Translations under genes and position numbers: made by a program
Notes under the pieces: generated by a model
Told to the model about the DNA's origin: nothing
Databases searched by the model: none
Seen by the model: the letters and a program-made list of their open reading frames with translations, nothing else
Part shown: positions 20,588 through 58,451 of the stretch, in pieces
How the letters are laid out: every line of letters starts with the position of its first letter
Numbering within the stretch: position 1 is the stretch's first letter
From: a virus
Strand: one strand, 5' to 3'
IMG/VR virus record: IMGVR_UViG_3300018018_000001
Span: 96,001-160,000 of that record
Length of the DNA stretch: 64,000 nucleotides

Positions 20588-20615
20588 TAAACTTTTTCTA
20601 AACTCCAGCCGATAA
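20588..20615 (+). promoter_or_regulatory. sigma28-like promoter P1
   Basis: TAAA-N16-GCCGATAA upstream of ORF 20662. Confidence 0.8.
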
Positions 20616-20872
20616 GATTATCAAAGACTTTAACTAAATGTTATCCAAAGGAGAATAACTTATGGAAAAGAATAAGAAAATGTATGAAATTCCATGCCTT
20701 AGGTGCCAAAAAGACTTTAAATATTCAGAAGATGAGATTCCAATTCCCCACCTCTGTGAAGTATGCACCAAGTTTTTTAAGGACTTTAACAGCCAATTGA
20801 ATAAAAAGATTCATAAGATTATTCCCAAGAAAGTGACGGAAAATGTCACTCCAAAAGAGGATAAAAAATAAC

Positions 20873-20900
20873 TAAACTTTTTCTATCCTCCTGCCGATAA
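20873..20900 (+). promoter_or_regulatory. sigma28-like promoter P2
   Basis: TAAA-N16-GCCGATAA upstream of ORF 20926. Confidence 0.8.
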
Positions 20901-21164
20901 GATAATTAGAGGCAAGGAGGGAAAGGTGAAAAAATTTTTTATAATTCTCTTGATATTAGGATTTATTGCAAATTGGGTGTATAATCATGATTGGCATATA
21001 AGTCCTGAAAAAATTCACTATGTTGTAGTAAAAGACCAATTCACAGGAGAAGCATACTTATTAAATACGAAAACTGGAAGAGAGTATAAATTACCTAATG
21101 AAATTTATTCTGTAGACGATCTTATAGGGAATGCAATAACAAAATTTAAAATGGAAAGAACAAA

Positions 21165-21887
21165 ATGATTTGTGAATATGGCTGTGGTCAGGAAGGTGTA
21201 TATCAACTTAAGAATGGTAAATGGTGCTGTAACCTTAGCCAAAATTCCTGCCCAGAAATAATAAAGAAATTAAGTAGAGCAGCAGAAGGAAGAAAACACT
21301 CTGTAGACACGTTAAGAAAAATGGGTGATTCCCATAGAGGAATAAAAAGACCTGATCACTCCGCTTTAATGAAACAGAAAATGTTGGGTGAAAATAACCC
21401 AAATTTTGGAAAAACAGGTAATAAAAGCCCAAGATTTGGTAAACCCGGTTATTGGAAAGGTAAAAAGAGACCGGATCTTTCTGGTGAAAATAATCCTTGG
21501 TTTGAAATAAAAAGACCTGATATTGCTGAAATAATGAAACAAAGAATTGGTGATAAACATCCTTTATTTGGTAAGACAGGAGAGCTTAGTCCAGGATGGA
21601 AAGGTGGAATTTCTAAAGATCCATACCCTATAGAGTTTAAAAGAATAAGAGGATATATCAGGGAAAAGTTTAATTATGAGTGTGTTCTATGTGGAATAAC
21701 TGAGGATAAAATTGGAAGGAAACATTCTTGTCATCATGTTGATTATGATAAGAGTAATATTTCTGAAGAAAACCTTACTTTATTATGCCAGGGGGATAAT
21801 GCTAGAGTAAATACTGATAGAGGCTTTTGGGAAACCCAATTCAAGATACTTAATGGGGTATTTGATCCTAAATTTTTAGGGCTATAA
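21165..21887 (+). CDS. HNH homing endonuclease with NUMOD3-like repeats (paralog 1 of 4)
   Basis: CEYGCG, GE-NP-FG repeats, CVLCG...HHVDYDKSN...NLTLLC. Confidence 0.8.
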   Translation: MICEYGCGQEGVYQLKNGKWCCNLSQNSCPEIIKKLSRAAEGRKHSVDTLRKMGDSHRGIKRPDHSALMKQKMLGENNPNFGKTGNKSPRFGKPGYWKGKKRPDLSGENNPWFEIKRPDIAEIMKQRIGDKHPLFGKTGELSPGWKGGISKDPYPIEFKRIRGYIREKFNYECVLCGITEDKIGRKHSCHHVDYDKSNISEENLTLLCQGDNARVNTDRGFWETQFKILNGVFDPKFLGL

Positions 21888-21899
21888 AAGGGGGGTAAG

Positions 21900-22091
21900 G
21901 TGCTTATAAACCAGAAAAAAGTAAAAGCCTACATTAAGGAACTGAACCCAGATACCCAAGTAGCCACTGACATTTGGCCTACAATCAATGAACAGGTTAA
22001 GACCCTTATCAGGTTAGCCCTGAAGCGTAATGGGACCCACAAGAGGCTTACTACAGGGGAATTTGCGATTCTGGACCCATTAAAGTATTAG
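21900..22091 (+). CDS. Putative single histone-fold protein
   Basis: 63 aa; L-x3-KVK-x-YIKE (alpha1), long amphipathic helix, HKRLTTGEF aligning with the RKTVxxxDI loop/alpha3 of prokaryotic histones; by-eye alignment only. Confidence 0.5.
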   Translation: MLINQKKVKAYIKELNPDTQVATDIWPTINEQVKTLIRLALKRNGTHKRLTTGEFAILDPLKY

Positions 22092-22612
22092 GAGGATAAA
22101 ATGATAATCCCGGAATATTTCTATTATCGTGCATTGAATAATGGAGAGGTTCATGTCTTTTACAAAGAGACAAGAATCTTTATCATGAAGAAGAAATGGA
22201 TAAAGGATGGATCAGGATTTACTATGGACTACTGGACTTGCAAATCCACCCTGTCCTATGTCCCTTCATTTAAAGAACCGGATTTTGATAAGGCTAAAGC
22301 AATGATTATGAAAGAACTGGAAAAATTCCTTAACCTATTTTCGGAGGATAAATAATCATGAGATTAAAAAACCATTTCGAGAAAATGTTTGACGGTATTT
22401 ATTTAAGCTATAAATCCATATCCATAACCGATGATGGTAGACTGATTATGAAGACTGTCGGTTGCGGATGCTGCTCTGATGTGGAACCAGTGGATACGGA
22501 TAACCTCCTGAAGGCGATTACTGAAACTGAGCACTACCTGAACCATCTTAAGGAATTAAAAAACAGGATTAAGAAAAATGCCCCTCTTCCGAAATTAAAG
22601 GAGAAATATAGT

Positions 22613-22640
22613 TAAACTTTTTATATGTTCCCGCCGATAA
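22613..22640 (+). promoter_or_regulatory. sigma28-like promoter P3
   Basis: TAAA-N16-GCCGATAA upstream of ATG 22663. Confidence 0.8.
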
Positions 22641-22931
22641 GATAATTAAAGGGAGGAATATTATGAACTTAGTAGAATTCTTTGACCCAAGAAACCTGGA
22701 CCATATTAAGGCTTACAAACATCTTTGTGATAAAGGAAAATATGGAAAGAACAAAAGGAATAAAACATAAATGGAAAAAAGAAAGAAAAATAACTAATGA
22801 AATGATTTTAAAAATCACGGAGTTAAGAAAGAATGGTAAAAAATTAAAAGAAATAAAAAATGAAACAGGAATAAATACCTGTACTATCAGCTTAATTTGC
22901 AATAAAAAATATAGATTTAGTTAAAAAAGAC

Positions 22932-22959
22932 TAAACTATTTCTATATCCTTGCCGAAGA
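22932..22959 (+). promoter_or_regulatory. sigma28-like promoter P4
   Basis: TAAA-N16-GCCGAAGA upstream of the AAA ATPase. Confidence 0.7.
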
Positions 22960-23001
22960 GATATATAAAGAGGCACTAAAAACGCAAGGAGGAAAAGGAA
23001 A

Positions 23002-24477
23002 ATGGCTTCAAAATTCAATCAATATCTTAAAGCGGGGTATCCGGCCATTTGGATTGAAACTCATGAAGAATTCAGGGCTATTGCCACCCTAGCTTTTGAG
23101 TCAAATGGATATTCGGTTTTCTCATGGGATGTAGTCACTGGCCAACGGGACCATGCCACTGATAAGTATACAAAGGAATCCCCTGAAACCCCGATGAAAG
23201 AGATTGGCCGAATTCTCCAGATGAAACCCGGTAGTGTAGTATTTCTTAAGGATTTTCCCAAGTTTTTTAACAATATTGAAGTCCTTCGTTCAATTAAAAA
23301 TCTCATTTCTGAGATTAAAGCTGATGACAGGCATATTATTTTTATCAGTCCTGCGGTAAATATCCCCATTGAATTGGAAAAGGATGTAACCGTATTGCCC
23401 TTTACCCTTCCTACCGTTGATGAATTGGTCCAGGTAGCGGAGAAGATAGTAAAAGATAACAAGTTTGATTCAGATAAATTTGATAAGAATAATAAACTGA
23501 TTTCTAAAAAAGTAGAAGTGGACCGTAAAACCATTTCAGTGGCCAAAGGGTTAACCCTACAAGAGGCCGAAAATGCAATGGCCAGATCCATAGTGGAAGA
23601 AAAGGGATTTTCCCGAAAGATCCTGGAAGAAGAAAAACTCCAGTGCATTAAGAAGTCAGGCATGATGGAACTCTTTGAACCCATGCCCGAAGCCGAATTG
23701 GTTATGGATGGATTGAAAATGTATATCCATAGGAGAGTCAAGGGTTTTGAGCCTGATTCTACTATGCCCACTCCTAAGGGAATTCTCTTGGTGGGTATTC
23801 CAGGTGGTGGGAAGTCATTGGCCTCTAAGGTTATCGCCAGTGTTCTGGGTTGCCCTCTGGTTCGTGTAGACATTGGGGCCTTAAAGGGTAGCAAGGTGGG
23901 GGAATCCGAAGCCCGTATGAGACAGTGTTTAGCCCAAATTGATGCCTTAGGATTCTGTGTAGTGTGGATGGATGAGATTGAAAAAGTCCTGAGCGGTGTT
24001 CAATCCAGTGGCCAATCGGATGCAGGGACAACCTCTACCATGTTTGGAACCCTGTTAACCTGGATGCAAGAATCAAAATTCCCCCATTACATTGTGGCCA
24101 CCTGTAATGAAATTCAAGACTTACTGGCCATTTCCCAAGGTGCCTTGTTAAGACGGTTTGATGATATCTTTTTTGTAGATCTTCCTTCTAAAGAAGAACG
24201 TGAAGAAATTATTAAGATTATGAATAAGAGATACAGCACTAAATTAAATGGAAATTTAGCGGAAAGAACTCAGGGATGGACTGGAGCAGAAATTGAAAAA
24301 TATGTTATAGCCAGTATTTATGATGGAGAAGAAGAAGCTTTCAATAATGTCCATCCAATTAGTGAACAGAACAAAGAGATCATTGAAAATGCCCGGAAAT
24401 GGTCTTTACAAAATGCACGTATCGCTAATTCAAGAAAAGTGGAAATTAAACCTGAAGGAAGAAAGATTAGAGTGTAG
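23002..24477 (+). CDS. Ycf46-like AAA+ ATPase
   Basis: N-terminal inactive AAA-like domain (YPAIWIETHEE, FLKDF, IPIELEKD), Walker A GIPGGGKS, Walker B WMDEIEK, RRFDDIFFVDLP. Confidence 0.85.
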   Translation: MASKFNQYLKAGYPAIWIETHEEFRAIATLAFESNGYSVFSWDVVTGQRDHATDKYTKESPETPMKEIGRILQMKPGSVVFLKDFPKFFNNIEVLRSIKNLISEIKADDRHIIFISPAVNIPIELEKDVTVLPFTLPTVDELVQVAEKIVKDNKFDSDKFDKNNKLISKKVEVDRKTISVAKGLTLQEAENAMARSIVEEKGFSRKILEEEKLQCIKKSGMMELFEPMPEAELVMDGLKMYIHRRVKGFEPDSTMPTPKGILLVGIPGGGKSLASKVIASVLGCPLVRVDIGALKGSKVGESEARMRQCLAQIDALGFCVVWMDEIEKVLSGVQSSGQSDAGTTSTMFGTLLTWMQESKFPHYIVATCNEIQDLLAISQGALLRRFDDIFFVDLPSKEEREEIIKIMNKRYSTKLNGNLAERTQGWTGAEIEKYVIASIYDGEEEAFNNVHPISEQNKEIIENARKWSLQNARIANSRKVEIKPEGRKIRV

Positions 24478-24486
24478 AGAATTAAT

Positions 24487-25116
24487 ATGATTATTTCTAA
24501 ACTTTGTGAATGTAATTGTGGCCAATATGCTAAACCTGGAAATAGATTTATTCTTGGTCATAATACAAAAGGGAAAAAGAATCTTACTCTCTCTGAAAGA
24601 AATAAGAAACGAAATATGAAGGGTGAGAATAACCCTATGTTTGGAAATAAAAATCCAATTCGTTCCGAAATGAATAAACAAAATGTGGGTGAAAAGAATC
24701 CTTGTTTTAAGAGAAAACATACTGAAGATGAATTAAGAAATCTTAGTAAGCTTAATAAAGGTAAAAAGAGACCTTATGTTTCCGAAAGAAATAAAAAATT
24801 GGTAGGTAACAAGAATCCAATATTTGGTAAGAAGGGTGAACTTAGTCCAAATTGGAAAGGAGGAATCTCTTTTGAACTTTATGGTCTTGGATTTAATAAA
24901 GAGTTAAAGAAATATATTAGAGAGAAATTTAATCATACTTGTGTTCTTTGCGGTGAGTTTGCAAAGATCCCCCATCATATAGATTATAATAAGAGGAATA
25001 ATCAGGAAGATAATTTTGTCCTTTTATGTAATTCATGTAATTCCAAAGTTAATAAGAATAGAATCCAATGGGAAATTTATTTTAGATCATATATTCTAAG
25101 ATTAAAGGAGGAATAA
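24487..25116 (+). CDS. HNH homing endonuclease with NUMOD3-like repeats (paralog 2)
   Basis: CECNCG, NPMFG repeats, CVLCG...HHIDYNK...LCNSCN. Confidence 0.8.
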   Translation: MIISKLCECNCGQYAKPGNRFILGHNTKGKKNLTLSERNKKRNMKGENNPMFGNKNPIRSEMNKQNVGEKNPCFKRKHTEDELRNLSKLNKGKKRPYVSERNKKLVGNKNPIFGKKGELSPNWKGGISFELYGLGFNKELKKYIREKFNHTCVLCGEFAKIPHHIDYNKRNNQEDNFVLLCNSCNSKVNKNRIQWEIYFRSYILRLKEE

Positions 25117-25117
25117 A

Positions 25118-25880
25118 ATGCCAAGGGAAGTATTAAGAGATGAAGTAGAACATGTGGAATTAGAGGTAAGTCAACTGGAGAAAGAGCGGAAAGAACTCAA
25201 TGCCGAAGCTGAATTTGAACTTGAGGTTGATTCCTTGACTTTTGAAATAGCGTGGTCCACAAATTTACCTTATGAAGAAGCCAGAAAACAGGCTCTTAAA
25301 AAATTAATGAGTAAGGGGGTTTAAGAGGAAGTAACATGGAGGCAATATATATTTATGTAAGTACGTTGTTCTTTATTTTTGCCGGATTCGTGGTTAAGTG
25401 GTCTGCAGGATGGGGGAATACGTTTGTAAGGTTTATCGCAATCCTGCTGGCTATCTCAGGGATAGTCTTATCCTTGGCTAAACTGGGGTTTATGCTTCCC
25501 CCTCTGATACATCCATAAGGAGAAAAATCACTATGAAATTTGCAAGTCCAGAACAATACCTTACCGCAGGATGCCTTTTCTTGGTGGGAGAAAAAAAGAA
25601 CCAAACAATATTCAATGGTCTTCATGAAAATACAAATGGAAGTATCTGTGAGACTGGTTGCGCCTACATTGATAAATGCCAGGCTTATAGGATTCTTTCC
25701 TCAAGGCTCACTGAAACCCCTGAGGAAAAGAAAATACCCATGCCTACCAATGCCCAGATAGCCGCTAAGCTGGGGGTAACAAAAAGGCAGGTGTCCAAGA
25801 TGAGAATCAAAGGAACTCTTAAGGCTGAAATCCTTAAGAGGGGTTTGGAAAACGAATTTAGTAATCTATCACTGATTTAG
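25118..25880 (+). other. Hypothetical proteins 25118-25324, 25336-25518 (2 TM) and 25533-25880 (C-terminal HTH)
   Basis: TNAQIAAKLGVTKRQVSKM is a helix-turn-helix signature. Confidence 0.6.
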
Positions 25881-26010
25881 TGGATTCTCAGGAATACCTA
25901 GAAGGTGAGAAAACGGGATGGGAACCGGAGACCCAGAATAACTACTCGAAGGGCTGATTCCCGTATCTGTAGGTCCTTTATCCCTGTGATTTCCTATTAG
26001 AGGGTAGAAT

Positions 26011-26091
26011 GATAAGGTAGCCCAGTGGGGAAGGGCAGCAGACTGTAAATTTGTGGCTTCGGCTGTGTAGGTTCAAATCCTACCCTTATCA
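26011..26091 (+). tRNA. trnY: tRNA-Tyr(GTA), no encoded CCA
   Basis: Acceptor GATAAGG/CCTTATC + A73, D stem GCCC/GGGC, anticodon loop CTGTAAA, long variable arm GGCTTCGGCT, T arm GTAGG-TTCAAAT-CCTAC. Confidence 0.9.
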
Positions 26092-26138
26092 TTCTGCTCT
26101 TTATTTAATGACATTTTATGTCACCATTAAAAAATAAC

Positions 26139-26165
26139 TAAACTTTTTCCAGGAATAGCCGATAA
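26139..26165 (+). promoter_or_regulatory. sigma28-like promoter P5
   Basis: TAAA-N15-GCCGATAA; palindrome TGACATTTTATGTCA at 26109-26123. Confidence 0.8.
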
Positions 26166-26203
26166 GATATTTAGAGGCAAGAAAATAACAAGGAGGTAAG
26201 AGA

Positions 26204-26353
26204 GTGAAGATTGTTAAACCCATCGGATACTTTGAGGACCATCGGCAGAAGAAGTTATTTCTGTTAGACAAAGCCACTTTAACCTTGACTCAGGTTCAGG
26301 AAACCATGTTTAAAAAGTGGAAGGCCATAATTGAGCAAAGGATGGAAAGGTAG
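26204..26353 (+). CDS. 49-aa hypothetical protein (not in the ORF track)
   Basis: AGGAGG RBS, GTG start, first ORF after P5. Confidence 0.55.
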   Translation: MKIVKPIGYFEDHRQKKLFLLDKATLTLTQVQETMFKKWKAIIEQRMER

Positions 26354-26870
26354 GAATTTGAAAGAGATTCCTCTAATCCCATTAGTCCCTGAAATGGGCA
26401 ACCAAAAAGCGATTGTTGACGATGAGGATTATGATCGTCTTATAAAATACAAGTGGTATTTGAATGCTCAGGGATACGCAGTCCGGTATATTGAGAAGGA
26501 TGGGAAGCGGGTCTACATCCGTATGCACAGGGAAATCTTTAATACCCCTGAAGGTTTGGATACTGACCATAAAGAGAGGAATAATAGGACAGACAACAGG
26601 AAGGAAAATCTGAGGTCATGTACCCGTGGGGATAATTCAAAAAATTCTAACCCTTGGAGTACTGACAGTAAATTTTGCTCTATTTATAAGGGAGTTACCT
26701 GGCATAATAGGAAAAAACATCCTTGGGTAGCAAGGATTAGGGTTAATAGGAAATATATTCATCTTGGGGTATTCAAAACAGAGATTGAGGCTGCTTTAGC
26801 CTATAATGAGGCAGCCAGGAAGTATTTTAAAGAGTTTGCCTACCAAAATGACATAAAATGTCAACCTTAA
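26331..26870 (+). CDS. HNH + AP2 domain homing endonuclease
   Basis: MHREI...TDHKERNNRTDNRKENLR; AP2 signature YKGVTW...WVARI...HLGVF...AALAYNEAA. Confidence 0.9.
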   Translation: MSKGWKGRNLKEIPLIPLVPEMGNQKAIVDDEDYDRLIKYKWYLNAQGYAVRYIEKDGKRVYIRMHREIFNTPEGLDTDHKERNNRTDNRKENLRSCTRGDNSKNSNPWSTDSKFCSIYKGVTWHNRKKHPWVARIRVNRKYIHLGVFKTEIEAALAYNEAARKYFKEFAYQNDIKCQP

Positions 26871-26877
26871 AAATAAC

Positions 26878-26904
26878 TAAACTTTTTCTAACTTCTGTCG
26901 ATAA
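26878..26904 (+). promoter_or_regulatory. sigma28-like promoter P6
   Basis: TAAA-N15-GTCGATAA; palindrome TGACATAAAATGTCA at 26849-26863. Confidence 0.75.
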
Positions 26905-26949
26905 GATCTATAGAAGTAAGCAAAATAAAAGACAAAGGAGGGTACTACA

Positions 26950-27312
26950 ATTTCTCATACAATGAACATCAGAACTGAGATAAGGGACCGGATAGCTCTT
27001 GAAGCTGCCTGTAAGGAATTGGGCATCAAGATCCTTGAAGGTAATAGCCACCATCTTTATGGTGGAACTGAATATGGAATTGGCCTTAAAATCCCTGGCT
27101 GGAATTACCCGGTAGTAGTCAAGGATAATGGGACCTTGGCCTTTGACGATTATAAAGGGTCTTGGGGTAACAAGCAGGACCTTACCAAACTTATGGCCTA
27201 TTATGGCCTTGAGAAGTCTAAGGCTGAAGCTGAGGATCAGGGTTACACAGTAGAGGAAAGTTATAATTCCCAAACTCAAGAATTAGAACTTGAAATCACA
27301 GTGGAGGAATAA
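26950..27312 (+). CDS. DUF1257 (Ycf35)-like protein, probable AUU start
   Basis: SH-x3-I-x-TEI-x-D...L..A...LG pattern; Y.LEK.KAEAE..GY; AGGAGG lies 8 nt before ATT-TCT-CAT. Confidence 0.7.
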   Translation: MSHTMNIRTEIRDRIALEAACKELGIKILEGNSHHLYGGTEYGIGLKIPGWNYPVVVKDNGTLAFDDYKGSWGNKQDLTKLMAYYGLEKSKAEAEDQGYTVEESYNSQTQELELEITVEE

Positions 27313-27314
27313 TC

Positions 27315-27521
27315 ATGTCTAAAAAAATCAAAATGAGATTTGATCTGAGAACGGGAGAAATAAAGGTGGAAGCAGAAGGATTTATAGGCCCTTCTTGCCA
27401 AAAGGCCACTGAATTTCTTAAAAATACCCTTGGGGAAGTAACCGATTTTACCCAAAAATCGGAATGGTTCGAAGAAAACCTTCAGTTATCTGGCTGTATT
27501 GATACTGATCTTTGTGGGTAA
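27315..27521 (+). CDS. DUF2997-like protein
   Basis: GEIKVEAEGFIGPSC...T..L...LG...K.E motif. Confidence 0.8.
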   Translation: MSKKIKMRFDLRTGEIKVEAEGFIGPSCQKATEFLKNTLGEVTDFTQKSEWFEENLQLSGCIDTDLCG

Positions 27522-27524
27522 GAT

Positions 27525-28148
27525 ATGAATATTTGTGATCATGGTTGCGGACAAGAAGCTAAGTATTATTCTCAACAAACTAAAAAATGGCGTTGTAGTA
27601 AATGGCCTAGCTCTTGCCCAGAACTTAGAAGAAAAGATAGTGAGTCCCATAAAAAGCCTAAACCAGATCTTAAATTATGTGAATGTGGCTGTGGGAATTT
27701 TGCTAAGCCGGGTAAGAGATTTATACATTGGCATCATACAAGAGGAAAGAAAAGACTTGACTTGGCTGGCAAAAAAAGACCAGATCATTCTATCAAAATG
27801 ACAGGTGAAGGAAATCCAAGGTTTGGCCAACCTGGTTATTGGAGAGATAAAAATAGGCCAGAATTTTCTGGTGAAAATCATCCTAATTGGCAAGGTGGCG
27901 TCTCTTTTGAACCTTATTCTCCTAAATTTAATAAACAATTTAAGACTATAATAAGAGAAAGAGATAATTACACTTGTCAACTATGTGGAGAATATGGAAA
28001 CTTTGTTCACCACATAGATTACAACAAGGAAAATACCAATCCTAATAATGCATTAACTTTATGCAATCCCGATAATTCTAAGGTAAATTTCAATAGGGAC
28101 CAGTGGGAAACTTATTTTAGGCTTTATTTATTGATAAAAAAGAACTAA
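27525..28148 (+). CDS. HNH homing endonuclease with NUMOD3-like repeats (paralog 3)
   Basis: CDHGCG, CECGCG, GGVSFEPY, CQLCG...HHIDYNK. Confidence 0.8.
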   Translation: MNICDHGCGQEAKYYSQQTKKWRCSKWPSSCPELRRKDSESHKKPKPDLKLCECGCGNFAKPGKRFIHWHHTRGKKRLDLAGKKRPDHSIKMTGEGNPRFGQPGYWRDKNRPEFSGENHPNWQGGVSFEPYSPKFNKQFKTIIRERDNYTCQLCGEYGNFVHHIDYNKENTNPNNALTLCNPDNSKVNFNRDQWETYFRLYLLIKKN

Positions 28149-28172: not shown

Positions 28173-28199
28173 GATATATAAACAAAAGGAGGAAACAAA

Positions 28200-48967: not shown

Positions 48968-50974
48968 GTGTATACAATAAAACCAAATTTTGAGAATATA
49001 GAATTAATATTCAAAGATGACTTGGATAAACCTATTTGGATTTGTTGGCAAGAGATTCCTCCCTCTGAGGCTGAAATTAAAAAGGCTGAAGTCCTAATGA
49101 GAGAAGCCAAGCCTGTTAAGATGCCGATTGATCCCAATACTGGATTCCAGGCAAAGACCAATGACGAAAAGACATGGGGAACATACTGGGTAGCGAAAGC
49201 ATATTACCAATCTAACCCTGATAAAATGTCCGGTTTAGGTCTAAATTATTATGGTAAGGGGGATAAGGATAAAAATTCTCATATCCTTTCTTTTGACCTG
49301 GATGACATTAAGAATGAATCAGGAGAGATTAAGGCTACCGTGATTAGGATTATTACTAAACTCTTGTCCTGGACTGAATTAACCCCTTCAGGAAAGGGGT
49401 GTAGGATCTATGTGAGAGAAAATTGGATGAAAGGAGGGAGAAAAGCAGGGATATTCAAAGATTTTAATGAAAAGGGGGAACCAGAAGAGCAGAAAATAGA
49501 ATTTTTTGGTGAGGGGAATCACTATGTAACAATTACGGGTGTTCCTATTCCTAAAATAAATGGATTTGATAACAATAAAATAGAAAAAAGACCAAAAGAT
49601 TTGACAGAGATGATTTATCAAAAAGTGTTCCCCCCTATTGTTAAATCCAATGAAGTTAAAGAGAAAGATGTAGAGATAACAGAATCCTATTTGGCCGAAG
49701 AACTTAGCTCTATTGGTTTTGAATATAAGCAAGAGTGGGGTATGGATCAGGGTGGAAAATCGGGATTCAAATTTAAGATTACTTGCCCTTGGGGATCAGA
49801 GGAGGGAACAGAACATGAAAGCGGTGTAAATAACTTAGGAGATGCTTTTATTTTTGTACCTGAAGACCATCGAAGGCCATGGTTTCATTGTTCCCACGCC
49901 ACTTGTAAAGATAAATATTCATGGGAAGACTTTTGTAGAAAAGTATTTGGCTATATTCTTTCCGATGGATCTTTGAATAGGAACATAATGTCCTGGATTA
50001 ATGATCATCCAGGGGAAATGTTTGACCATCGTTTTCTTCAAAATGAATTTCATATTTTTTCTGAAAGTGAAAAAAATAATTTACGTGTTACTTTGTTTAG
50101 AGCTAAGAAAGATAATATAATTGAACAACTTTCAAAATCCGGTAATTATCGGGTTATTTCAACAAAGGTGGTGGAAATGCCATTAGCTAAAAATGAGAAA
50201 AAGTCTTTTAAGATAGCTTTGCCATTGAATATTAATCTCTTAGGGACGTTTAAGCCTGAGAGGATTATTCTGGTACAAGGGGAAGTTAATGCAGGAAAAA
50301 CTGCTTTTAACTTTAGCCTTATTAAACCCAATTATAGGATAACTCCTATTCATTATTTTAGTAATTCCGAAATTGATGCAGAGGATATTGAAAGCAGAAT
50401 GGCTTATCTGTTTTGTGAGAAACCAATGGAATACTGGCAAGATAAAAATAATCTTAGTTTCCATAGAATAGAAATTGAAACTGAATTTGCTGATGTAGTT
50501 AGGTTGTATAAAGATTCCATTATTATTTGCGATTACTTTGATGCCTCAAAGGATTATACTCAAGCCGCTCATCAAATGGCCAGAATCCATGATAAGTTAC
50601 AAGGAACAGGGAATATGGCAATAGTGTCAGTCCAGATTAATATTAACAAAGAAGTCAAGGATAATTTTGCATTGAGGGCATATGGAGGACCAAGTTTGAC
50701 AACAAGACCTTCTACTGTCTTTAACTTAGTTAAAAGTAGTGGATACAATGTTCTTTATGTCCAAAAATTTAAACAAGTAGATCCTGTAGTCTACAAATTA
50801 TTCTATGACAACCGATGGTGCCGGCCGTATAGAGTTTATGCCGAAGGTGGATTTATTGAAAAGACAACAGAGTATTGGGAACACCGTGGAGATAAAGAAG
50901 ATGAGATCCCATTTAAACTATCTGACGATAAGGAGAATTGGGGAAAGACTCCACCCCAAGTTACGGGGGGATAA
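48968..50974 (+). CDS. Primase-polymerase (AEP, NrS-1-like N-terminus) fused to a Cys/His domain and a RecA-fold helicase
   Basis: P.DP.TG..A..ND..TW, FDLDD, TELTPSGKG, YVTITG; CPW...H...CSHATC; GEVNAGKT, IICDY. Confidence 0.8.
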   Translation: MYTIKPNFENIELIFKDDLDKPIWICWQEIPPSEAEIKKAEVLMREAKPVKMPIDPNTGFQAKTNDEKTWGTYWVAKAYYQSNPDKMSGLGLNYYGKGDKDKNSHILSFDLDDIKNESGEIKATVIRIITKLLSWTELTPSGKGCRIYVRENWMKGGRKAGIFKDFNEKGEPEEQKIEFFGEGNHYVTITGVPIPKINGFDNNKIEKRPKDLTEMIYQKVFPPIVKSNEVKEKDVEITESYLAEELSSIGFEYKQEWGMDQGGKSGFKFKITCPWGSEEGTEHESGVNNLGDAFIFVPEDHRRPWFHCSHATCKDKYSWEDFCRKVFGYILSDGSLNRNIMSWINDHPGEMFDHRFLQNEFHIFSESEKNNLRVTLFRAKKDNIIEQLSKSGNYRVISTKVVEMPLAKNEKKSFKIALPLNINLLGTFKPERIILVQGEVNAGKTAFNFSLIKPNYRITPIHYFSNSEIDAEDIESRMAYLFCEKPMEYWQDKNNLSFHRIEIETEFADVVRLYKDSIIICDYFDASKDYTQAAHQMARIHDKLQGTGNMAIVSVQININKEVKDNFALRAYGGPSLTTRPSTVFNLVKSSGYNVLYVQKFKQVDPVVYKLFYDNRWCRPYRVYAEGGFIEKTTEYWEHRGDKEDEIPFKLSDDKENWGKTPPQVTGG

Positions 50975-51711
50975 TGAAAACCAAAGAGTTTAAATTATGT
51001 GAATGCAATTGTGGTAATTATGCCAAACCAGGAAATAGATTTATTAATGGGCATAATAGAATAGGGAAGAAAAATATTGAAGCTGCTTCTAGGATAGGTA
51101 ATAAAAATCCAATGTTTGGTAGAACTGGTAAAAATAGTCCTATATTTAATAGGAAACATACTAAAGATGAATTGAGAGAGATGAGTGAATCTCAAAAAGG
51201 TGAGAAAGGTTATTGGTTTGGAAAGAAAAATTTTGATCATTCTGTTAGAATGTTAGGAGAGAAGAGTCCAAGATTTGGTAAACCTGGCTATTGGGCAGGA
51301 AAGAAAAGACCAGATATTTCAGCTAAACCTAGTCCTATGCTTGGAAAGAAAAATCCTATTGTTTCTATTTTAATGAAAGAAAAAACAGGTGATAAGAATA
51401 ATAATTGGAATGGAGGGTCCTCTTTTGAACCTTATAGTTTAGAGTGGACTAATGAATTAAAAAATAAAATTAGAGAAAGGGATCATTATATTTGTCAACT
51501 TTGTAAAAAATATGGAAATACTATTCATCATATTGATTATAATAAGAAGCATTGTGATTTTAGTAATTTAATTAATTTATGTAGAAGTTGCAATGTTAAA
51601 GTAAATAAGAATAGAATTCAATGGGAAATTTATTTTAGACTATATATGGTTATAAATCAGAAAGGAGAGAGAAATGAAAGTGGAACTCGAAGCACCAAAG
51701 AAAATTCTTGA
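50974..51711 (+). CDS. HNH homing endonuclease with NUMOD3-like repeats (paralog 4)
   Basis: CECNCG, GGSSFEPY, CQLC...HHIDYNK...LCRSCN; TAATG coupling. Confidence 0.8.
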   Translation: MKTKEFKLCECNCGNYAKPGNRFINGHNRIGKKNIEAASRIGNKNPMFGRTGKNSPIFNRKHTKDELREMSESQKGEKGYWFGKKNFDHSVRMLGEKSPRFGKPGYWAGKKRPDISAKPSPMLGKKNPIVSILMKEKTGDKNNNWNGGSSFEPYSLEWTNELKNKIRERDHYICQLCKKYGNTIHHIDYNKKHCDFSNLINLCRSCNVKVNKNRIQWEIYFRLYMVINQKGERNESGTRSTKENS

Positions 51712-52011
51712 GACAACGATTCCTGAATCCAGGCCCCATGGTGGTGTGGCTCCTATGTCTGGATGCCCTGTTTGTGAGGCGTTGGAAAAAATTTATCGCA
51801 AGGATAAGAAGAGAAAACCTTTTATGCCTGATAAGGATAGGGAGTAAATTTTGATTGTAAGAAACTCTATAGGAAATTTGGTTTGCCCAATGAAAAAGAT
51901 TCCATGCACCTACAAGAAGGGGAATGGTAGGTGTAAGAAATATTCCGTTAGGGTAAAAGAGATATTAGGGAAACAGGTTTGCCTCAATGTCAGAAAAAGA
52001 TCGATTAAGGA

Positions 52012-52551
52012 GTGTTCAATATGGGATCTGGAATAGGTGGTCATCAAAGAACGTATCAAGGTAGAACCAATGAATGGTTTACCCCGAAATGGATTATAGA
52101 CAAGCTTGGGCAATTTGATTTGGACCCCTGCTCCTCTGATAGAAGGCCATTTGATATTGCGCCTAGATGGTTTACAAAAGAGGATAATGGGTTGAGTAAG
52201 GAATGGCTTGGTATGGTATTTGTTAATCCACCTTATGGCCCTGAGACTAAGCTGTGGCTTAAAAAGCTTAAAGAGTATGGGAATGGGATAGCTCTTGTCT
52301 TTGCCCTGACTGAAACCAAAATGTTCTTTGACCATGTTTGGAATGACTGTTCTGCAATCCTGTTTATCAAAAAGAGGGTTTCCTTTACCGATTGCACAGG
52401 GGATGAAGGGCAGAGTTCCAATGGTGGCCCCTCTGTTTTGATTGCTTATGGAGAGCAAGCGGCTGAAAGATTGGAGAAATCAGGGATTGAGGGAAAGTTT
52501 ATTAATATGAAAAGAAAAGGATTATTTGAATTTAAGGTTAAGTTTCTATGA
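52012..52551 (+). CDS. Phage Dam-like N6-adenine methyltransferase
   Basis: EWFTP, FDLDPC, FVNPPYG. Confidence 0.85.
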   Translation: MFNMGSGIGGHQRTYQGRTNEWFTPKWIIDKLGQFDLDPCSSDRRPFDIAPRWFTKEDNGLSKEWLGMVFVNPPYGPETKLWLKKLKEYGNGIALVFALTETKMFFDHVWNDCSAILFIKKRVSFTDCTGDEGQSSNGGPSVLIAYGEQAAERLEKSGIEGKFINMKRKGLFEFKVKFL

Positions 52552-53156
52552 TTGATAAAAATTATCGTTTAAATGTAGGTAGGGCAGGTGAATTTTTAGT
52601 TGCTGCTGATTTAATTTTAAAGGGATTTAGGGCTTTCCCTACTTCTGAGGGTCTTTCTTATGATATTATTTTAGAAACTAAAAATCATATTTTTTTAAAA
52701 ATTCAAGTAAAGTCAACAATTGGAAAAAGAAAAAGAAGTAAACAGAATGGACAAAAGGGTGAATCTCCTTTTAGATATATTTTTCATGGAAAAAGAAGTG
52801 GAAAGCATGGAAAAAATTGTTATACAGATAAGGAAGTAGATATTTTTGCTTTTATTGCTCTTGATAGCAAAGAAATTGGTTATATTCCTATTGATTTTAT
52901 TCAAGATCAAATGCCTTTCCTTCCTGAGGGTTCAAAAGTTTCTAGGTCTGTTGATGATATAAAAATTAAAATATTTGAACTAAAGAGTAAAGGACTTACA
53001 CTAACTGAAATTTCTAAAAGATTGGGTAAACATATAAGCTGGGTTTGCAGGGTTTCTCAGGGTAAAGAAAATAATTCTATTAAGGAGAGACATTTATCTG
53101 ATTTTCCAATAGATAAAGCTGTTGAATATATCTTATCAAAGAAAGAGCATAAATAA
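52548..53156 (+). CDS. PD-(D/E)xK endonuclease with C-terminal HTH
   Basis: G..GE..V...L, YDII, IQVKS, VDIFA; LTEISKRLGKH.SWV. Confidence 0.75.
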   Translation: MIDKNYRLNVGRAGEFLVAADLILKGFRAFPTSEGLSYDIILETKNHIFLKIQVKSTIGKRKRSKQNGQKGESPFRYIFHGKRSGKHGKNCYTDKEVDIFAFIALDSKEIGYIPIDFIQDQMPFLPEGSKVSRSVDDIKIKIFELKSKGLTLTEISKRLGKHISWVCRVSQGKENNSIKERHLSDFPIDKAVEYILSKKEHK

Positions 53157-53671
53157 TGACTGCTAATGATATTATTAAGGAATTACCACGTTTAGGAAGT
53201 TATAGGTCTATTCTAATTCCTGAATTTACTTGGGGAGATCTTAGAATAGATGCTTTACTAATAAATTTTGATAAACGATTAATAAGAGGTTTTGAAATTA
53301 AAGTCAATAGGGGGGATTTTATTAAAGACGAAAAATGGGCTTTGTATTCTCAGTTCTGTTCATCCCTCATTATTGCTTGCCCCGCTGAATTGATAAAACC
53401 TGAAGAGGTTGAAAAGCCATTTGGATTACTTTGGGTTTATGAGAATATAGGACCCAGAGGAGTGGAATTTGATTGGATAAAGAGGCCAAAGAACTTTCAA
53501 AAAAGAAACTCCCTTGCATGGTTGTGGACTTATCTTAAAGTCATGGAGGAAGAGTTTCCAAGAATGTCTGAAGAGTTGGAAAGAGTAAAGAGGGATAATA
53601 AATATTTACAGAATGCACTAAACAAATTAGAGGATTTTGCCAATAAAAGAGAGGAGGAATCATGCCTATAA
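53156..53671 (+). CDS. MmcB-like PD-(D/E)xK protein
   Basis: RIDAL...GFEIKVNRGDF..D.KW..Y..FC. Confidence 0.65.
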   Translation: MTANDIIKELPRLGSYRSILIPEFTWGDLRIDALLINFDKRLIRGFEIKVNRGDFIKDEKWALYSQFCSSLIIACPAELIKPEEVEKPFGLLWVYENIGPRGVEFDWIKRPKNFQKRNSLAWLWTYLKVMEEEFPRMSEELERVKRDNKYLQNALNKLEDFANKREEESCL

Positions 53672-53970
53672 AATATAAAAGAATTGAAACTTTTATTTTA
53701 GAACCAGAGGAAAAGAAATGTAACCGATGTAAGAGAGCGTTTAAATATAATTCAGATAACATGATTGAATGGCAGGAATTTTTTCATGTTGAGTTTGAAG
53801 GTGGTTATGGTTCCATTTTTGGAGATGAAGCCAAAGTTACACTTGATCTTTGTCAAACTTGTGTTAGAGTGGTTTTAGGAGAATACCTTGAGGTTAGTTC
53901 TGATTGGATGGATCAAGTTAATCAAGATAGGGAACAAGAAGAAATAAAATTTAGAAGGGAAAATGGATGA
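53662..53970 (+). CDS. Hypothetical Zn-ribbon-like protein
   Basis: CNRC...GGYGSIFGD...DLCQ.C. Confidence 0.6.
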   Translation: MPIKYKRIETFILEPEEKKCNRCKRAFKYNSDNMIEWQEFFHVEFEGGYGSIFGDEAKVTLDLCQTCVRVVLGEYLEVSSDWMDQVNQDREQEEIKFRRENG

Positions 53971-54241
53971 TATTTATATTGGTCGTTGGAATCCAAGAAT
54001 TCCTATTGATAGTAAATATCGAAACCCTTTTAAGATAGGGATTGACGGTGATAGGTTGGAATGTCTTAAGAAGTTCAAGGAATATTTCTATTCCAATTCT
54101 GCTCTTATGATTGATGCAGTACAGGAACTTAAGGGAAAAATATTGGGTTGCTGGTGCAAAGAAGAGGGTAAGTCTGAAATGGAAACTCTTTGTCATGGGG
54201 ATATTCTTGCCGCTTATGTGGATAACTTTACGGAGGGTTAA
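53963..54241 (+). CDS. DUF4326-like protein
   Basis: IYIGR, Y.NPF.IG.DG.R, L.GK.LGCWC, CHGD.L. Confidence 0.85.
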   Translation: MDDIYIGRWNPRIPIDSKYRNPFKIGIDGDRLECLKKFKEYFYSNSALMIDAVQELKGKILGCWCKEEGKSEMETLCHGDILAAYVDNFTEG

Positions 54242-57200
54242 TGGGGAATTCACCTGCTATTTGTGATGATTGTGAAAAGTGTTTACTCTGTTATCAGGAT
54301 ATAAAGCATCCAGGTCTTGGTGGCCGTGGAAACTTAAATGATCCTATCCTTGTTGGGATTGGGGAGGCCCCTGGACCTGATGAGGATATAGAAGGAACAA
54401 TTTTCATTGGTAAAGCAGGGAAAGAGTTGGAATTGCTTTTGGGTGATAAACTTCCTCTGATATATCTTACTAATGCCTTAAAGTGTTTGCCCCTCAAGAG
54501 GTTTGATGATCCTTCACAAGGTTTCCGTACTCCTGAGGCTTTGGAAATCTTTTCTTGCCGCTCACTTTTATTCAAAGAGCTTAAGGCTTTTGATCCCAAT
54601 AAAGTTATCTTGATGCCAATGGGAGCAATAGCATATCAATCCATATTTGGTTTCCCTCCTGATCCTGGAATTCTGTCAGTAGCCGGGATGCCTATGAGAG
54701 TAAAAATAAATAACACAGAATTTTTGGTAGTACCTAATGTTCATCCCTCTTGGGTTGCCAGAGCCCCTAAAGAAAGAGAGGGAAAATTTAGAGGTATTTT
54801 GAACAGGGCTTGGGGCCTTGCTAAAGAAGGAAATTTATCAACTGTGAGTATCGAGAGTAAGGGAGCAGACTATGAAATTCTAAACCCTAATAGAGCTATC
54901 CAGGAACTTGAATTTATCCTGGCAAATAAAGAAAATCTTCCATACATAATAGTGGATTTGGAAACTACTTCTTTGGATTATTGGAAAGCCAAAATCCTTA
55001 TGATTAACTTTGCTCATTCTCTTAATCCCAAGGGGTTTTCAATACCGCTCAGAGTTACTAATGAAAATCATCATCCTGATAAATATCCATACCAGGTTCC
55101 AATAATTCCTTGGGATATTACTCCTGAACAGGTTTCTAAGATAATAGGGTTGTTTATAAAGATTCTTGAAAGTGTTCCTCTTGTCGGCCATAATCTCAAA
55201 TATGATTTGTTGATTCTGCTTTGGAATAAATGGATAGCAAATTTAGATAATGTTGTTGTGTTTGATGATACTATGATTCTTCTCCATTTGATTTACAATC
55301 AGAAATTAGGCAATTTGAAACTCAAGGATTGCTGTAAAAAATTGTTTAATATAGTAGATGATTGGGATAAGAAAGTTACAAGCTACCTGGAGTTGTTCCG
55401 ATTAAAGGAGGATAAAACTAACTATGCCCTTTTGCCTACGTCCATTCTTGGGGAATATGGGGCTTTGGATGCTTATTACAATCGGAAGTTACATGACCAT
55501 CTTCTTGAGGACTTCCCTAAGGATTTGACAGAGCTAAGAGAATTTATTACTTATCTAACAATTGTCTTGACCGAATCTGAGATTTCGGGAATAGCCTTGG
55601 ATGAGGATGTTCATAAATTCCTTGCGAACACCTATGGAGATATGCTGGATAAGATGTTTGACAAGGCTTTATCCTTTCCTATGGTTAAGAAATATATTGA
55701 GGCTAACATAGGTTCTGTGAGAGAGGCAAATGAAAAGCCTAGAAAGAAAAAGAAGCTATCCGAAGAGGAAATGGTAGCTGAAGTATTTACGATGACAAAA
55801 CGGTTGGCCCTTGTGGATGTAATGTATGACAAAGAATATTTGGGTATGCCTGTACTCAAGAAAACCAAGGGGGGAAAGGATAGGTCTGCCAAAGCCCCTT
55901 CCACTGACCAAGAAGCCGTGGAATTACTCCATCTTTATCCTAAGCTGAATGAGGACCAGAGAATCTTTATTGATAACCTGGCTGATTACCGAACCATAGA
56001 CAAATTGAAATCCACCTATGTAGATCCTGTCATGAACCAGTTTGTGGATAATCTTTACCGTCAAGAGTTCATGATTCCAGGGACCATAACTGGTAGACTT
56101 TGTTTAGTTGGTAGTACAAAAATTTCATTACTAAATGGTGAAGAAATAGAAATTGATAAATTACCAATAAATGAAAAAATATATTTATATGGTTGTCTTC
56201 AAGATGGTGGCATAATTCCTGTTGAAGCTATATCAATTGGGGAAACTAAGAAAGTTACTATTATTGCAGAAGTTATATTAGATAATGGTTGTATTGAAAG
56301 ATGCACTCTTGACCATTCTTGGATGTTAAGAGATGGGTCTTATAAAGAAGCCCAGTATCTTAATCCTGGTGATTCTTTAATGCCTTTATACAGAGAAACT
56401 AAAAAAATAGGAGAATATAAAGATTATGAAGTTATTATAAATAATAAAAATGGTAAAAAAATTCTTACTCATAAATTAGTAGCTAATTATTTTAATAGAG
56501 ATCAAAAATTGGAGGTTAGGAAAAATACCAAAGATAAATACTTGGTTATTCATCATGACGATTTTAATAGAAAAAATAATTACCCTAAAAATTTAATTTG
56601 GATGGGGGAACATGATCATTGGATACTTCACGCCTCTCTTGGTAAGGCGGACTTACTTCTAAAATATGTTTGTTCTGATGAGGGTAGAAAAAAATCTAGT
56701 GAAAGATTATTGAAAAGATGGTCTGACCTAGAATATAGAGAAAAACAAATAAAGATTCTTAGAAATAATGGTCTTAAAAGTTGGGAGTCAGAAGATAGAA
56801 GAAACAAGCAAGTCCAGATTGGTAGAAATAATGCCCATTTTATGCTTACCCCTAAATTTAGGGAAAAGTCTTTAAAATTATCTATTCCTATAAATTCTAA
56901 AAGATGGAAAGAGTTGTGGGGCATTGATGAAAAGTGGAGACAAGATTGTATTAATAGAATTAAAGAAATATGGAATAATGAAGAATATAGAGAAAAAATG
57001 TCTTCCATTGCTAAAGATACAATTAGGAAGCAACTTCAAGATCCTATATTTGTAGAAAAATCAAGATTAGCTGCTATAAAATGTGGTACTGAAGTGTTTA
57101 ATAGAGTAATAAATAAACTATGTCCTAAATGTGGTAAGATATTTGTTAAACAAGCAGCTTTAAATGGGCATCTTGGCTACTGTGGTAAAGGATTAAATAA

Positions 57201-58422
57201 TAAGAAAGATTATTTAAATGACGTTGTTAATCAGTCTTGCCCTAAATGTGGGAAAACTTTTTTAATTAAAGGCAGCTATATTGGGCATGTGAACAGTTGT
57301 AAACACAACCATAGAGTAGTGTCTGTCAAAATAATAAAATTAGAAAATCCCATCTCTGTTTATGAAATTGCTTATTCTAAAACAAATAATTTTGCACTTT
57401 CATCCGGAGTTTTTGTCCACAATTCTTCGGGATTCCATACTCTCCCCCGTGAGTCAGATATTAAGAGAATGTATACAAGTCGATGGAGGGAAAAAGGTGG
57501 CTTGATTTTGGGATTCGATTTTTCACAATTGGAACTGAGAGTTTTGGCCTGTCTATCCCAAGAGCCTAAAATGATTGAAGCTTTTATCAATCATGTGGAC
57601 ATTCATGCCAAGACAGGGGGGGAGATTGCGGGTAAGTCTTGGGATAAGATAACTCCTGATGAGCGTTCTATCGGAAAGACCACAAATTTTGCAATTGTGT
57701 ACGGAAAAACTGCTGATACCCTGAAAGATGACTTGCATGTGTCCAGGGAAAGAGCGCAGCAGATTATTGACAGTGTGCTAGGGGGTTATGATAAAGTAGC
57801 GTCCTGGATGGAAGCAAGGCACAAGGAACTGGAAAATATAGGGGGAATCAAGACGATTTTTGGTAGGGAGATTCCCATTCCAGAGTTCTACCTTCAGGGC
57901 AGAACCTTTGAGTTAGAGGCCCAGAGAAAGTCTGTAAATTATCCAATACAATCAACGGCTTCCGATTTGGCTAATAGTGGCTTAGTGAGATTATATAAGA
58001 AATTCAAGATGTTACATTTACAGAGTATAATTCTTGCCGCTATCCATGATGCTGCTTATTCCGATCTTAAGCCTGGAGAATTATTCGTTTCTATAGCCAT
58101 GATGAAGAAAATTCTTGAGGCTGAGACTATGAGGATGTATCCTTGGATTATTTGTCCTATTGAAATAGACATTTCTATGGGTACATCATTGGGAAGTTCT
58201 ATAAAATTAGAGGTAGAAGAACTTGAGGAAAATCGAGCACTTCTAAAGGGAAAGGGACTTAGGAAGGATTTTAATATGCTTATGAATGTGGGACAAGAGG
58301 CTTATAACATGAAATTCTACCTGGAAAAGGAAAAGCCTGTAGATTCAGATTACTTCACTTTAGATCGTGTCTTGGGGGATACTGTTGAGTGGAAAGGAAG
58401 GCTAGAAGTATCCAATAAATGA
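54241..58422 (+). CDS. polA: Family A DNA polymerase with an N-terminal family-4 UDG domain, 3'-5' exonuclease and an intein
   Basis: GEAPG..ED...F.GKAG, TNALKC, HPS; DLETT, GHNLKYD, YGALDA; TGRL|SS, DFSQLELR, K..NF..VYG, NYPIQS, IHDA. Confidence 0.93.
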   Translation: MGNSPAICDDCEKCLLCYQDIKHPGLGGRGNLNDPILVGIGEAPGPDEDIEGTIFIGKAGKELELLLGDKLPLIYLTNALKCLPLKRFDDPSQGFRTPEALEIFSCRSLLFKELKAFDPNKVILMPMGAIAYQSIFGFPPDPGILSVAGMPMRVKINNTEFLVVPNVHPSWVARAPKEREGKFRGILNRAWGLAKEGNLSTVSIESKGADYEILNPNRAIQELEFILANKENLPYIIVDLETTSLDYWKAKILMINFAHSLNPKGFSIPLRVTNENHHPDKYPYQVPIIPWDITPEQVSKIIGLFIKILESVPLVGHNLKYDLLILLWNKWIANLDNVVVFDDTMILLHLIYNQKLGNLKLKDCCKKLFNIVDDWDKKVTSYLELFRLKEDKTNYALLPTSILGEYGALDAYYNRKLHDHLLEDFPKDLTELREFITYLTIVLTESEISGIALDEDVHKFLANTYGDMLDKMFDKALSFPMVKKYIEANIGSVREANEKPRKKKKLSEEEMVAEVFTMTKRLALVDVMYDKEYLGMPVLKKTKGGKDRSAKAPSTDQEAVELLHLYPKLNEDQRIFIDNLADYRTIDKLKSTYVDPVMNQFVDNLYRQEFMIPGTITGRLCLVGSTKISLLNGEEIEIDKLPINEKIYLYGCLQDGGIIPVEAISIGETKKVTIIAEVILDNGCIERCTLDHSWMLRDGSYKEAQYLNPGDSLMPLYRETKKIGEYKDYEVIINNKNGKKILTHKLVANYFNRDQKLEVRKNTKDKYLVIHHDDFNRKNNYPKNLIWMGEHDHWILHASLGKADLLLKYVCSDEGRKKSSERLLKRWSDLEYREKQIKILRNNGLKSWESEDRRNKQVQIGRNNAHFMLTPKFREKSLKLSIPINSKRWKELWGIDEKWRQDCINRIKEIWNNEEYREKMSSIAKDTIRKQLQDPIFVEKSRLAAIKCGTEVFNRVINKLCPKCGKIFVKQAALNGHLGYCGKGLNNKKDYLNDVVNQSCPKCGKTFLIKGSYIGHVNSCKHNHRVVSVKIIKLENPISVYEIAYSKTNNFALSSGVFVHNSSGFHTLPRESDIKRMYTSRWREKGGLILGFDFSQLELRVLACLSQEPKMIEAFINHVDIHAKTGGEIAGKSWDKITPDERSIGKTTNFAIVYGKTADTLKDDLHVSRERAQQIIDSVLGGYDKVASWMEARHKELENIGGIKTIFGREIPIPEFYLQGRTFELEAQRKSVNYPIQSTASDLANSGLVRLYKKFKMLHLQSIILAAIHDAAYSDLKPGELFVSIAMMKKILEAETMRMYPWIICPIEIDISMGTSLGSSIKLEVEELEENRALLKGKGLRKDFNMLMNVGQEAYNMKFYLEKEKPVDSDYFTLDRVLGDTVEWKGRLEVSNK
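56101..57423 (+). mobile_element. Intein (441 aa) with an HNH endonuclease and two C2H2/C2HC-like zinc fingers
   Basis: CLVGSTKISLLNG ... NNFALSSGVFVHN|S; THKLVA...IHHDDFNRKNN...NL; CPKCGK...H..C twice. Confidence 0.92.
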
Positions 58423-58423
58423 C

Positions 58424-58451
58424 TAAACTTTCCCCCTTATTATGCCGAAGA
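58424..58451 (+). promoter_or_regulatory. sigma28-like promoter P9
   Basis: TAAA-N16-GCCGAAGA just after polA, upstream of ATG 58473. Confidence 0.7.

Follow-up and report, generated by a model that had tools for sequence, protein, structure and literature searches.

A FliA/WhiG-family sigma factor gene and 21 sigma-28-type promoter sites in the genome of a contractile-tailed phage

The class-3 flagellar promoters and the bacterial sigma-28 factors are the closest described counterparts of the system reported here. These promoters carry CTAAA at -35 and GCCGATAA at -15 to -8, with C-13 and G-12 as critical bases. We analyzed a 64,000-nt stretch of DNA from an uncultured virus (hereafter the window, positions 96,001-160,000 of the 181,621-bp IMG/VR virus record IMGVR_UViG_3300018018_000001, G+C 36.5%) together with the rest of that genome, and found 21 sites built from the same boxes with the same critical bases, as well as a gene for a sigma factor of the FliA/WhiG family. 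Like FliA of Escherichia coli and Pseudomonas aeruginosa, SigD of Bacillus subtilis and WhiG of Streptomyces, the phage protein has regions 2, 3 and 4 and keeps the key DNA-contact residues. Unlike bacterial sigma-28, it belongs to a lytic-type phage, and the genes behind the sites are devoted to replication, recombination and tRNA repair, not to motility. Coordinates below refer to the window, or to the whole record where marked "genome".

Phages that organize a block of their genome with a sigma factor and a promoter class of their own are already described, namely SPO1, phiEco32 and T4 with gp55. Their factors are highly diverged or extracytoplasmic function (ECF)-like and, to our knowledge, the phage sigma factors studied so far all read phage-specific motifs. 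Here, in contrast, a recognizable cellular family occurs with the canonical promoter of that family, and full-text literature searches found no paper on a phage FliA-family sigma factor with sigma-28 promoters. The phage would have taken over a cellular sigma family with its promoter and reorganized about half of its genome around them, a clean and testable case of a cellular regulatory module turned into a viral programme. The novelty would lie in factor and promoter both being recognizably of cellular type; the logic of a cascade is known. Since the phage factor would use the canonical promoter of the cellular family, host and phage factors could cross-read their sites, which raises the question of cross-talk with the host motility regulon and its anti-sigma factor.

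Sigma-28-type promoter sites in the window and the genome

The initial annotation of the window had described nine plus-strand copies of a sigma-28-like motif, and the coordinates of all nine are exact (Table 1). The loose pattern TAAA-N14-17-GNCGAWR matched 13 times in the window for 1.3 matches expected, and none of 100 dinucleotide shuffles reached 13. These matches comprise the nine sites, two minus-strand copies and two others, at 7537 (plus strand) and 38212 (minus strand), which look like chance occurrences. When a two-block position-weight matrix was scanned over the whole genome, 21 sites were obtained at 32-50 bits and the next unrelated position scored below 21 bits. Eleven of them lie in the window and ten elsewhere in the genome. 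The nine copies are therefore confirmed, and the proposed regulon is larger: it extends to both strands and takes in genes of replication, recombination and tRNA repair as well as methylase genes. The bare hexamer CTAAAC is not enriched (40 found, 33 expected), so the signal resides in the two-box arrangement. A search of IMG/VR with the motif returned one single-copy match in an unrelated 35.6-kb contig, which we took as chance.

The placement of the sites is highly constrained. All but one of the 21 lie between genes, and six of the intergenic ones share the TAA stop codon of the upstream gene with their -35 TAAA; the remaining site, at genome 176,350, falls in the 3' part of an open reading frame (ORF). 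Likewise, 20/21 point in the same direction as the flanking genes. The even spread over ORFs and antisense strands that would have argued against a regulon was thus not observed. About 15 sites stand 19-46 nt ahead of a start codon with an AGGAGG-type ribosome-binding site, and the non-structural part of the genome (96-179 kb) holds every site but one. This last site (genome 57,650-57,677, minus strand) is an antisense copy of full strength (42 bits), located beside the head protease gene and directed away from it into a homing-endonuclease gene. Only a 25-codon ORF lies downstream, and the site may give rise to an antisense or non-coding RNA over the late genes.

Each site consists, in order, of an A-rich tract, CTAAAC, a T-rich run, the spacer, a -10 box tGCCGA(T/A)(A/G)A and then GA(T/C)A. 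The sigma-28 geometry put forward in the initial annotation was confirmed, the spacer from TAAA to the G of the -10 box being 16 nt long in 16 sites and 15 nt in the other 5. Positions are numbered as in the sigma-28 complex solved for P. aeruginosa (PMC12784957), which has GCCGATAA at -15 to -8 and TCTAAAG at -36 to -30. In this register TAAA is present in 21/21 sites, and C-13, G-12, A-11, A-8, G-7 and A-6 are equally invariant. Sigma-28 promoters start transcription 7-8 nt past the -10 octamer. The predicted +1 position is an A in all 21 sites, preceded in 20 of them by a pyrimidine at -1; this invariant A provides an internal check of the sigma-28 promoter register. C-13 and G-12 are the bases that distinguish sigma-28 from sigma-70 promoters (bioRxiv 10.1101/2020.01.02.893370). 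Hence the sequence elements of a sigma-28 promoter (TAAA at -35, a spacer of about 15 nt, GCCGATAA at -10 and the essential C-13/G-12) are found in the 21 sites. Two subclasses of -10 box can be distinguished: T-10 always occurs with A-9 (13 sites), and A-10 occurs with G-9 (6 sites) or A-9 (2 sites). They have no obvious link to gene type.

Could the motif be something other than a promoter, such as a regulator binding site, a target of recombination or homing endonucleases, or a repeated mobile cassette? The density of homing endonuclease genes in this genome makes repeated cassettes plausible, and a different repeat of 44 bp does exist. Against this, the two boxes are conserved at a fixed spacing around a spacer of variable sequence, the orientation and the distance to the ribosome-binding sites are fixed, the flanks are unconserved beyond the upstream A-rich tract and the first few transcribed bases, and the match to the known promoter consensus is base for base. 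We consider a non-promoter origin very improbable.

Table 1. Sigma-28-type promoter sites in the window and the gene block that they serve.
Feature	Position in window	Strand	Score (bits)	Spacer and box variants	Context
Sigma-28-type promoter	533..560	-	32.2	spacer 16; -10 variant GCCGAAAA	46 nt before next minus-strand gene
Sigma-28-type promoter	3960..3987	-	42.3	spacer 16; -10 variant GCCGAAGA	~88 nt before ORF 3419-3871 (-)
Sigma-28-type promoter	20588..20615	+	44.7		first rightward of the divergent point; 46 nt before ORF at 20662
Sigma-28-type promoter	20873..20900	+	50.0		best match of the genome; 25 nt before ORF at 20926
Sigma-28-type promoter	22613..22640	+	39.3		-35 TAAA takes in stop codon of upstream gene
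Sigma-28-type promoter	22932..22959	+	42.5		fronts 491-aa AAA-type ATPase gene (23002-24477; phrog_8638, phrog_10401)
Sigma-28-type promoter	26139..26165	+	43.0	spacer 15	immediately after tRNA-Tyr (26010-26092)
Sigma-28-type promoter	26878..26904	+	41.0	spacer 15; -10 GTCGATAA	~57 nt before ORF 26962-27312
Sigma-28-type promoter	28146..28172	+	35.4	spacer 15; -35 TAAAGTTT; -10 GACGATAA	27 nt before 286-aa ORF at 28200
Sigma-28-type promoter	30482..30509	+	43.6		19 nt before ORF at 30529
Sigma-28-type promoter	58424..58451	+	40.2		directly after DNA polymerase gene; opens tRNA-repair block (CCA-adding enzyme, Thg1-like enzyme)
Plus-strand non-structural gene block behind sigma-28-type promoters	20662..64000	+			reaches genome 178.8 kb

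The phage sigma factor and the reading of the sites

For such promoters the initial annotation had offered two readers, the flagellar sigma-28 of the host, which would tie infection to the motile state, or a FliA-like factor encoded by the phage. The second alternative is supported by a gene lying outside the window, at genome 28,570-29,313 (plus strand), which is the only Sigma70_r2/r4 locus of the genome. Its 247-aa product (P0001) matches Pfam Sigma70_r2 at residues 23-93, r3 at residues 103-141 and r4 at residues 177-224, a group-3 architecture without region 1.1, and its predicted model (predicted local distance difference test, pLDDT, 81) consists entirely of helices arranged in three domains. 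Among the NCBIfam models FliA_WhiG (TIGR02479) scores best, with 174.1 bits, the SigB/F/G model reaching 74 bits. The solved proteins nearest in sequence are FliA of E. coli, WhiG of S. venezuelae, FliA of Aquifex and FliA of P. aeruginosa (6pmi, 6pfv, 1rp3 and 9wsf; E-values 1e-27 to 3e-23), SigA being matched at 1.6e-14 or weaker. When the predicted model was submitted to Foldseek, B. subtilis SigD, Aquifex sigma-28 (1rp3), WhiG (6pfj) and P. aeruginosa sigma-28 (9wsm) ranked first.

The residues that contact promoter DNA were compared with those of two bacterial factors. Four contact residues of P. aeruginosa sigma-28 (PMC12784957) are identical in the phage protein: R97 (R98 here), which reads the GC at -15/-14; Y76 and D66 (Y77 and D67), which hold the flipped -11A; and Q228 (Q213), which reads the -35 element. 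Among the E. coli contacts, T69, R74, R84, R94 and R220 are also identical, and R58 and R98 are replaced by lysine.

Two orthologues were recovered from other metagenomes, P0002 (68% identity) and P0003 (57% identity). In the three phage-type factors, about 15-20 residues of the linker that joins regions 3 and 4 in bacterial FliA are missing (residues ~145-170 of P0001), DP takes the place of the DW that bacteria keep after region 2.4, and a short extension is present at the C-terminus. Further relatives were sought through the sigma factor: IMG/VR yielded none, whether queried with the protein itself or with an alignment of the three orthologues, JGI metagenomes gave only two loci at 26% identity, the best tblastn matches among GenBank phages were uncultured gut phages at no more than 35% identity, and bacterial FliA matches, all at most 40% identical, were scattered across many phyla.

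These observations favor a phage-encoded reader, because a FliA-type sigma gene is present in the same genome as the sites. We estimate at about 0.65 the probability that host core RNA polymerase, equipped with the FliA/WhiG-family sigma factor of the phage, reads the 21 promoters. The 247-aa factor would join the host core enzyme and recognize CTAAAC at -35 and GCCGA(T/A)(A/G)A at -15 to -8, and transcription would start at the invariant A, eight bases past the octamer. The non-structural half of the genome would then form one sigma-specific regulon, independent of the flagellar state of the host and of FlgM. Bacterial members of the family are controlled by an anti-sigma factor, FlgM or RsiG. 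In a six-frame search of the phage genome neither RNA polymerase subunit genes nor FlgM were detected, a weak negative because the same kind of search missed a Peptidase_S77 protein that was later matched by hmmscan.

Several points weigh against this assignment. The score of the phage factor is below the curated TIGR02479 cut-off (189.6 bits) and, judging from its sequence, we read it as a divergent, not a clean, FliA/WhiG member. P. aeruginosa S224 corresponds to G209, and six E. coli contact positions are changed (H26T, R34S, Q63R, Q73R, R95D and K208T). The main spacer is 16 nt long instead of the canonical 15. The sequencing runs that contain DNA of this phage are peat metagenomes from several studies, with no RNA run among them. 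Finally, a host sigma-28 would probably read the same sites.

According to this last alternative, the host factor (FliA/SigD) would fire the promoters, at least when infection starts, and infection would be linked to the motile state. The phage sigma would then have an auxiliary role, in which it takes over later, competes with the host factor or reads other sites. In favor of this alternative, no critical base of the canonical consensus is altered in the sites. Moreover, no sigma-70-type promoter stands ahead of the early-looking genes: in the window region 19.5-32 kb such sites are not enriched (28 found, 37 expected) and none is placed at a gene front. Yet the phage carries its own sigma factor of exactly that family, and host sigma-28 is normally held by FlgM. 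In addition, the invariant G-7, A-6 and A+1, which go beyond the bacterial consensus, suggest together with the 16-nt spacer that the promoters are tuned to a particular factor. Firing by the host factor thus appears unlikely, and the phage sigma remains the preferred reader.

How the phage sigma itself would come to be made is a separate matter. In the genome-wide matrix scan, the sigma gene is not preceded by any copy of the motif. An ordinary cascade, compatible with the preferred explanation, would have the holoenzyme of the host primary sigma transcribe the sigma gene, whose product would then activate the 21 sites as middle-class promoters. Phage sigma cascades are a known pattern: in SPO1, host sigma-A drives the early genes and phage sigma factors then serve middle and late transcription (PMC13401047). 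A candidate extended -10 promoter, TGTGGTATAAT, is found at genome 24,818, 3.7 kb upstream of the sigma gene and in the same direction, and no other recognizable promoter lies between the two. However, two terminator-like hairpins, one with a perfect 14-bp stem, separate this candidate from the sigma operon, and the pattern TGNTATAAT is not above chance in the genome (13 found, about 21 expected from base composition). The densest cluster of sigma-28-type sites also fronts small ORFans beside the divergent point and looks like an immediate-early region, and the conserved leader of the sigma factor described below is left unaccounted for. A cascade of this kind is a serious possibility that falls somewhat short of even odds.

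These two hairpins are arranged in tandem directly before the sigma operon (genome 28,094-28,193). It is the second that forms the perfect 14-bp stem, and it stops 24 nt short of the start codon of the first gene. They may act as a terminator, an attenuator or a processing site.

The N-terminal leader of the sigma factor

T4 provides the closest known case of short leaders that send proteins into a phage head. Its gp21 prohead protease cuts capsid-targeting leaders at L/I-x-E, ten leader residues suffice to load foreign proteins into the head, from which they are delivered on infection, and one head-delivered cargo, Alt, modifies host RNA polymerase (PMC9026906). In the present phage, about 35 otherwise unrelated proteins share a comparable leader of 10-13 residues that ends in [LIVMF]-x-E, and the sigma factor is one of them.

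The leader is 13 residues long in the products of the tightly packed genes around the sigma gene. As a test of whether the sigma factor carries it, a matrix was built from 22 leaders with the sigma left out. The N-terminus of the sigma factor scored 17.6 bits, a value reached by 4e-5 of internal positions in phage proteins. Every start codon on both strands was then scored, which gave 37 hits of at least 8 bits. Thirty-five are clear members that start between 6.6 and 66 kb of the genome on the plus strand; the remaining two are weak (9-10 bits). In the half served by the sigma-28-type promoters, no leader hit was found except one weak hit at 181.2 kb. The tripeptide [LIVMF]-x-E occurs within residues 7-16 of 35/35 leaders, the N-termini being read by eye, versus 18.5% of the other proteins. 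Tagged genes flank the sigma gene on both sides in a tight, translationally coupled run, with starts at genome 27,490, 28,218, 28,570 (sigma), 29,576 and 29,824. The leader is kept in both sigma orthologues and is not found in bacterial FliA.

A further likeness to T4 is the presence of a gp21-family protease. The protein encoded at genome 57,817-59,403 matches Peptidase_S77 with 33.8 bits (cut-off 27; hmmscan), as well as phrog_207, and every leader-bearing gene is located in the half of the genome devoted to head and cargo. These resemblances point, tentatively and with the odds clearly against it, to a sigma factor that would be packaged in the head by a T4-like capsid-targeting leader and injected with the DNA, so that the host core enzyme would be redirected at once to the 21 promoters. 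If the factor is packaged and injected, these promoters would be immediate-early; such a regulon, which we regard with the same reserve, might be expressed without new protein synthesis and without any host sigma. Delivery and a cascade could coexist.

Unlike the known T4 cargo, one of the tagged, putative cargo proteins is here a whole sigma factor. N4 delivers a virion RNA polymerase (vRNAP). Giant phages of the phiKZ type also carry a virion RNA polymerase (PMC9026906). With a packaged sigma the logic would be the same, the particle bringing what starts phage transcription; those phages deliver a polymerase, whereas only a specificity subunit for the host core would be delivered here. If the leader does act in capsid targeting, the phage would have the first particle-borne sigma factor that our literature search could trace. 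It would represent a third way to start an infection, beside the use of host holoenzyme and the injection of a polymerase, and a natural example of a transcription-reprogramming protein delivered with DNA. Such a delivery would be new in kind.

Inside the run of small leader-bearing genes, a segment of about 85 nt is repeated exactly (genome 16,320-16,406 and 16,788-16,874), which suggests a recent duplication in an array of putative cargo genes.

Genome setting and further elements

The record ends in a 123-bp terminal repeat that corresponds to an assembly overlap, and the map is effectively circular. It encodes a tail sheath, baseplate proteins, tail fibres, the gp21-family head protease and a weak match to a large terminase, as found in contractile-tailed phages. 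The plus-strand genes extend from about 116.6 kb, across the end of the record, to about 93 kb, and a minus-strand block occupies 93.4-116.5 kb.

The plus-strand block behind the promoters contains small ORFans, the AAA-type ATPase, a DNA methylase, SbcCD, a RusA-like resolvase, SSB, a UvsX-like recombinase, and a helicase, primase and DNA polymerase block. It also contains a CCA-adding enzyme, a Thg1-like enzyme, an RNA ligase, a nucleotidyltransferase and many homing endonucleases. As to the functions that the initial annotation had given to the downstream genes, the AAA component is thus present (Table 1) and Imm was not found. For the genes that immediately follow the promoters, Pfam and PHROG gave nothing significant; two of these genes have Pfam hits below threshold. 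The minus-strand promoters front an intein-bearing 732-aa protein, ORFans and a methyltransferase; lysis genes were looked for behind them and none was found.

Relatives of the phage were sought by other routes. Megablast of the window region 20-32 kb gave no match among GenBank phages, and no relative was found through the AAA ATPase. The tail sheath retrieved one relative at 75% identity, a 16.9-kb structural fragment that is uninformative for promoters.

The phage carries genes for tRNA-Tyr and tRNA-Pro, and an Rfam scan detected two tRNAs and nothing else. The set of tRNA and RNA repair genes (CCA-adding enzyme, Thg1-like tRNA-His guanylyltransferase, RNA ligase and nucleotidyltransferase) is distributed over window 59496-62458 and genome 165,631-171,598. 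Immediately before the gene of the 668-aa primase, a 132-bp stretch (window 48836-48967) is very AT-rich and contains short direct repeats with TAGTA, TATTA and GGTAG units; a replication origin or an iteron region may lie here.

Free-standing homing endonuclease genes occur at unusually high density throughout the genome. They include an HNH family with a shared Cys-rich N-terminus, GIY-YIG types and a Vsr-like one, examples being located at window 21165-21887, 24487-25116, 26331-26870, 27525-28148 and 45704-46342. Moreover, the 732-aa protein (window 1217-3415, minus strand) contains a LAGLIDADG intein, and the 1393-aa DNA polymerase contains an HNH insert.

Other promoter-like elements were also observed. 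The T4 late motif TATAAATA was tried as a late promoter and rejected, as it is not placed in front of genes. The core ATTATATA occurs at genome 17,102, 31,057 and 57,760, as well as in the 44-bp repeat described below, and lies upstream of the 919-aa tail-fibre gene, the head protease gene and a small gene, at distances of 25-60 nt. Similarly, CAATATAA is found 26-50 nt before three other genes of the structural half. Both are candidates for a late promoter class made of a -10 element only, with weak statistics. The 44-bp repeat is a second promoter-like cassette of about this length, present in five copies (window 20526-20569, minus strand, 33347-33390 and 37844-37887, plus strand; genome 21,990-22,033 and 87,071-87,114). 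It consists of two GGTGT(A/T)AT half-repeats 22 bp apart and ends with an extended -10-like element, TGTTATTATATAG. The five copies front a ribonucleotide reductase operon, an SbcD-like gene, a 179-aa gene, a 625-aa exonuclease-like gene and an HNH gene.

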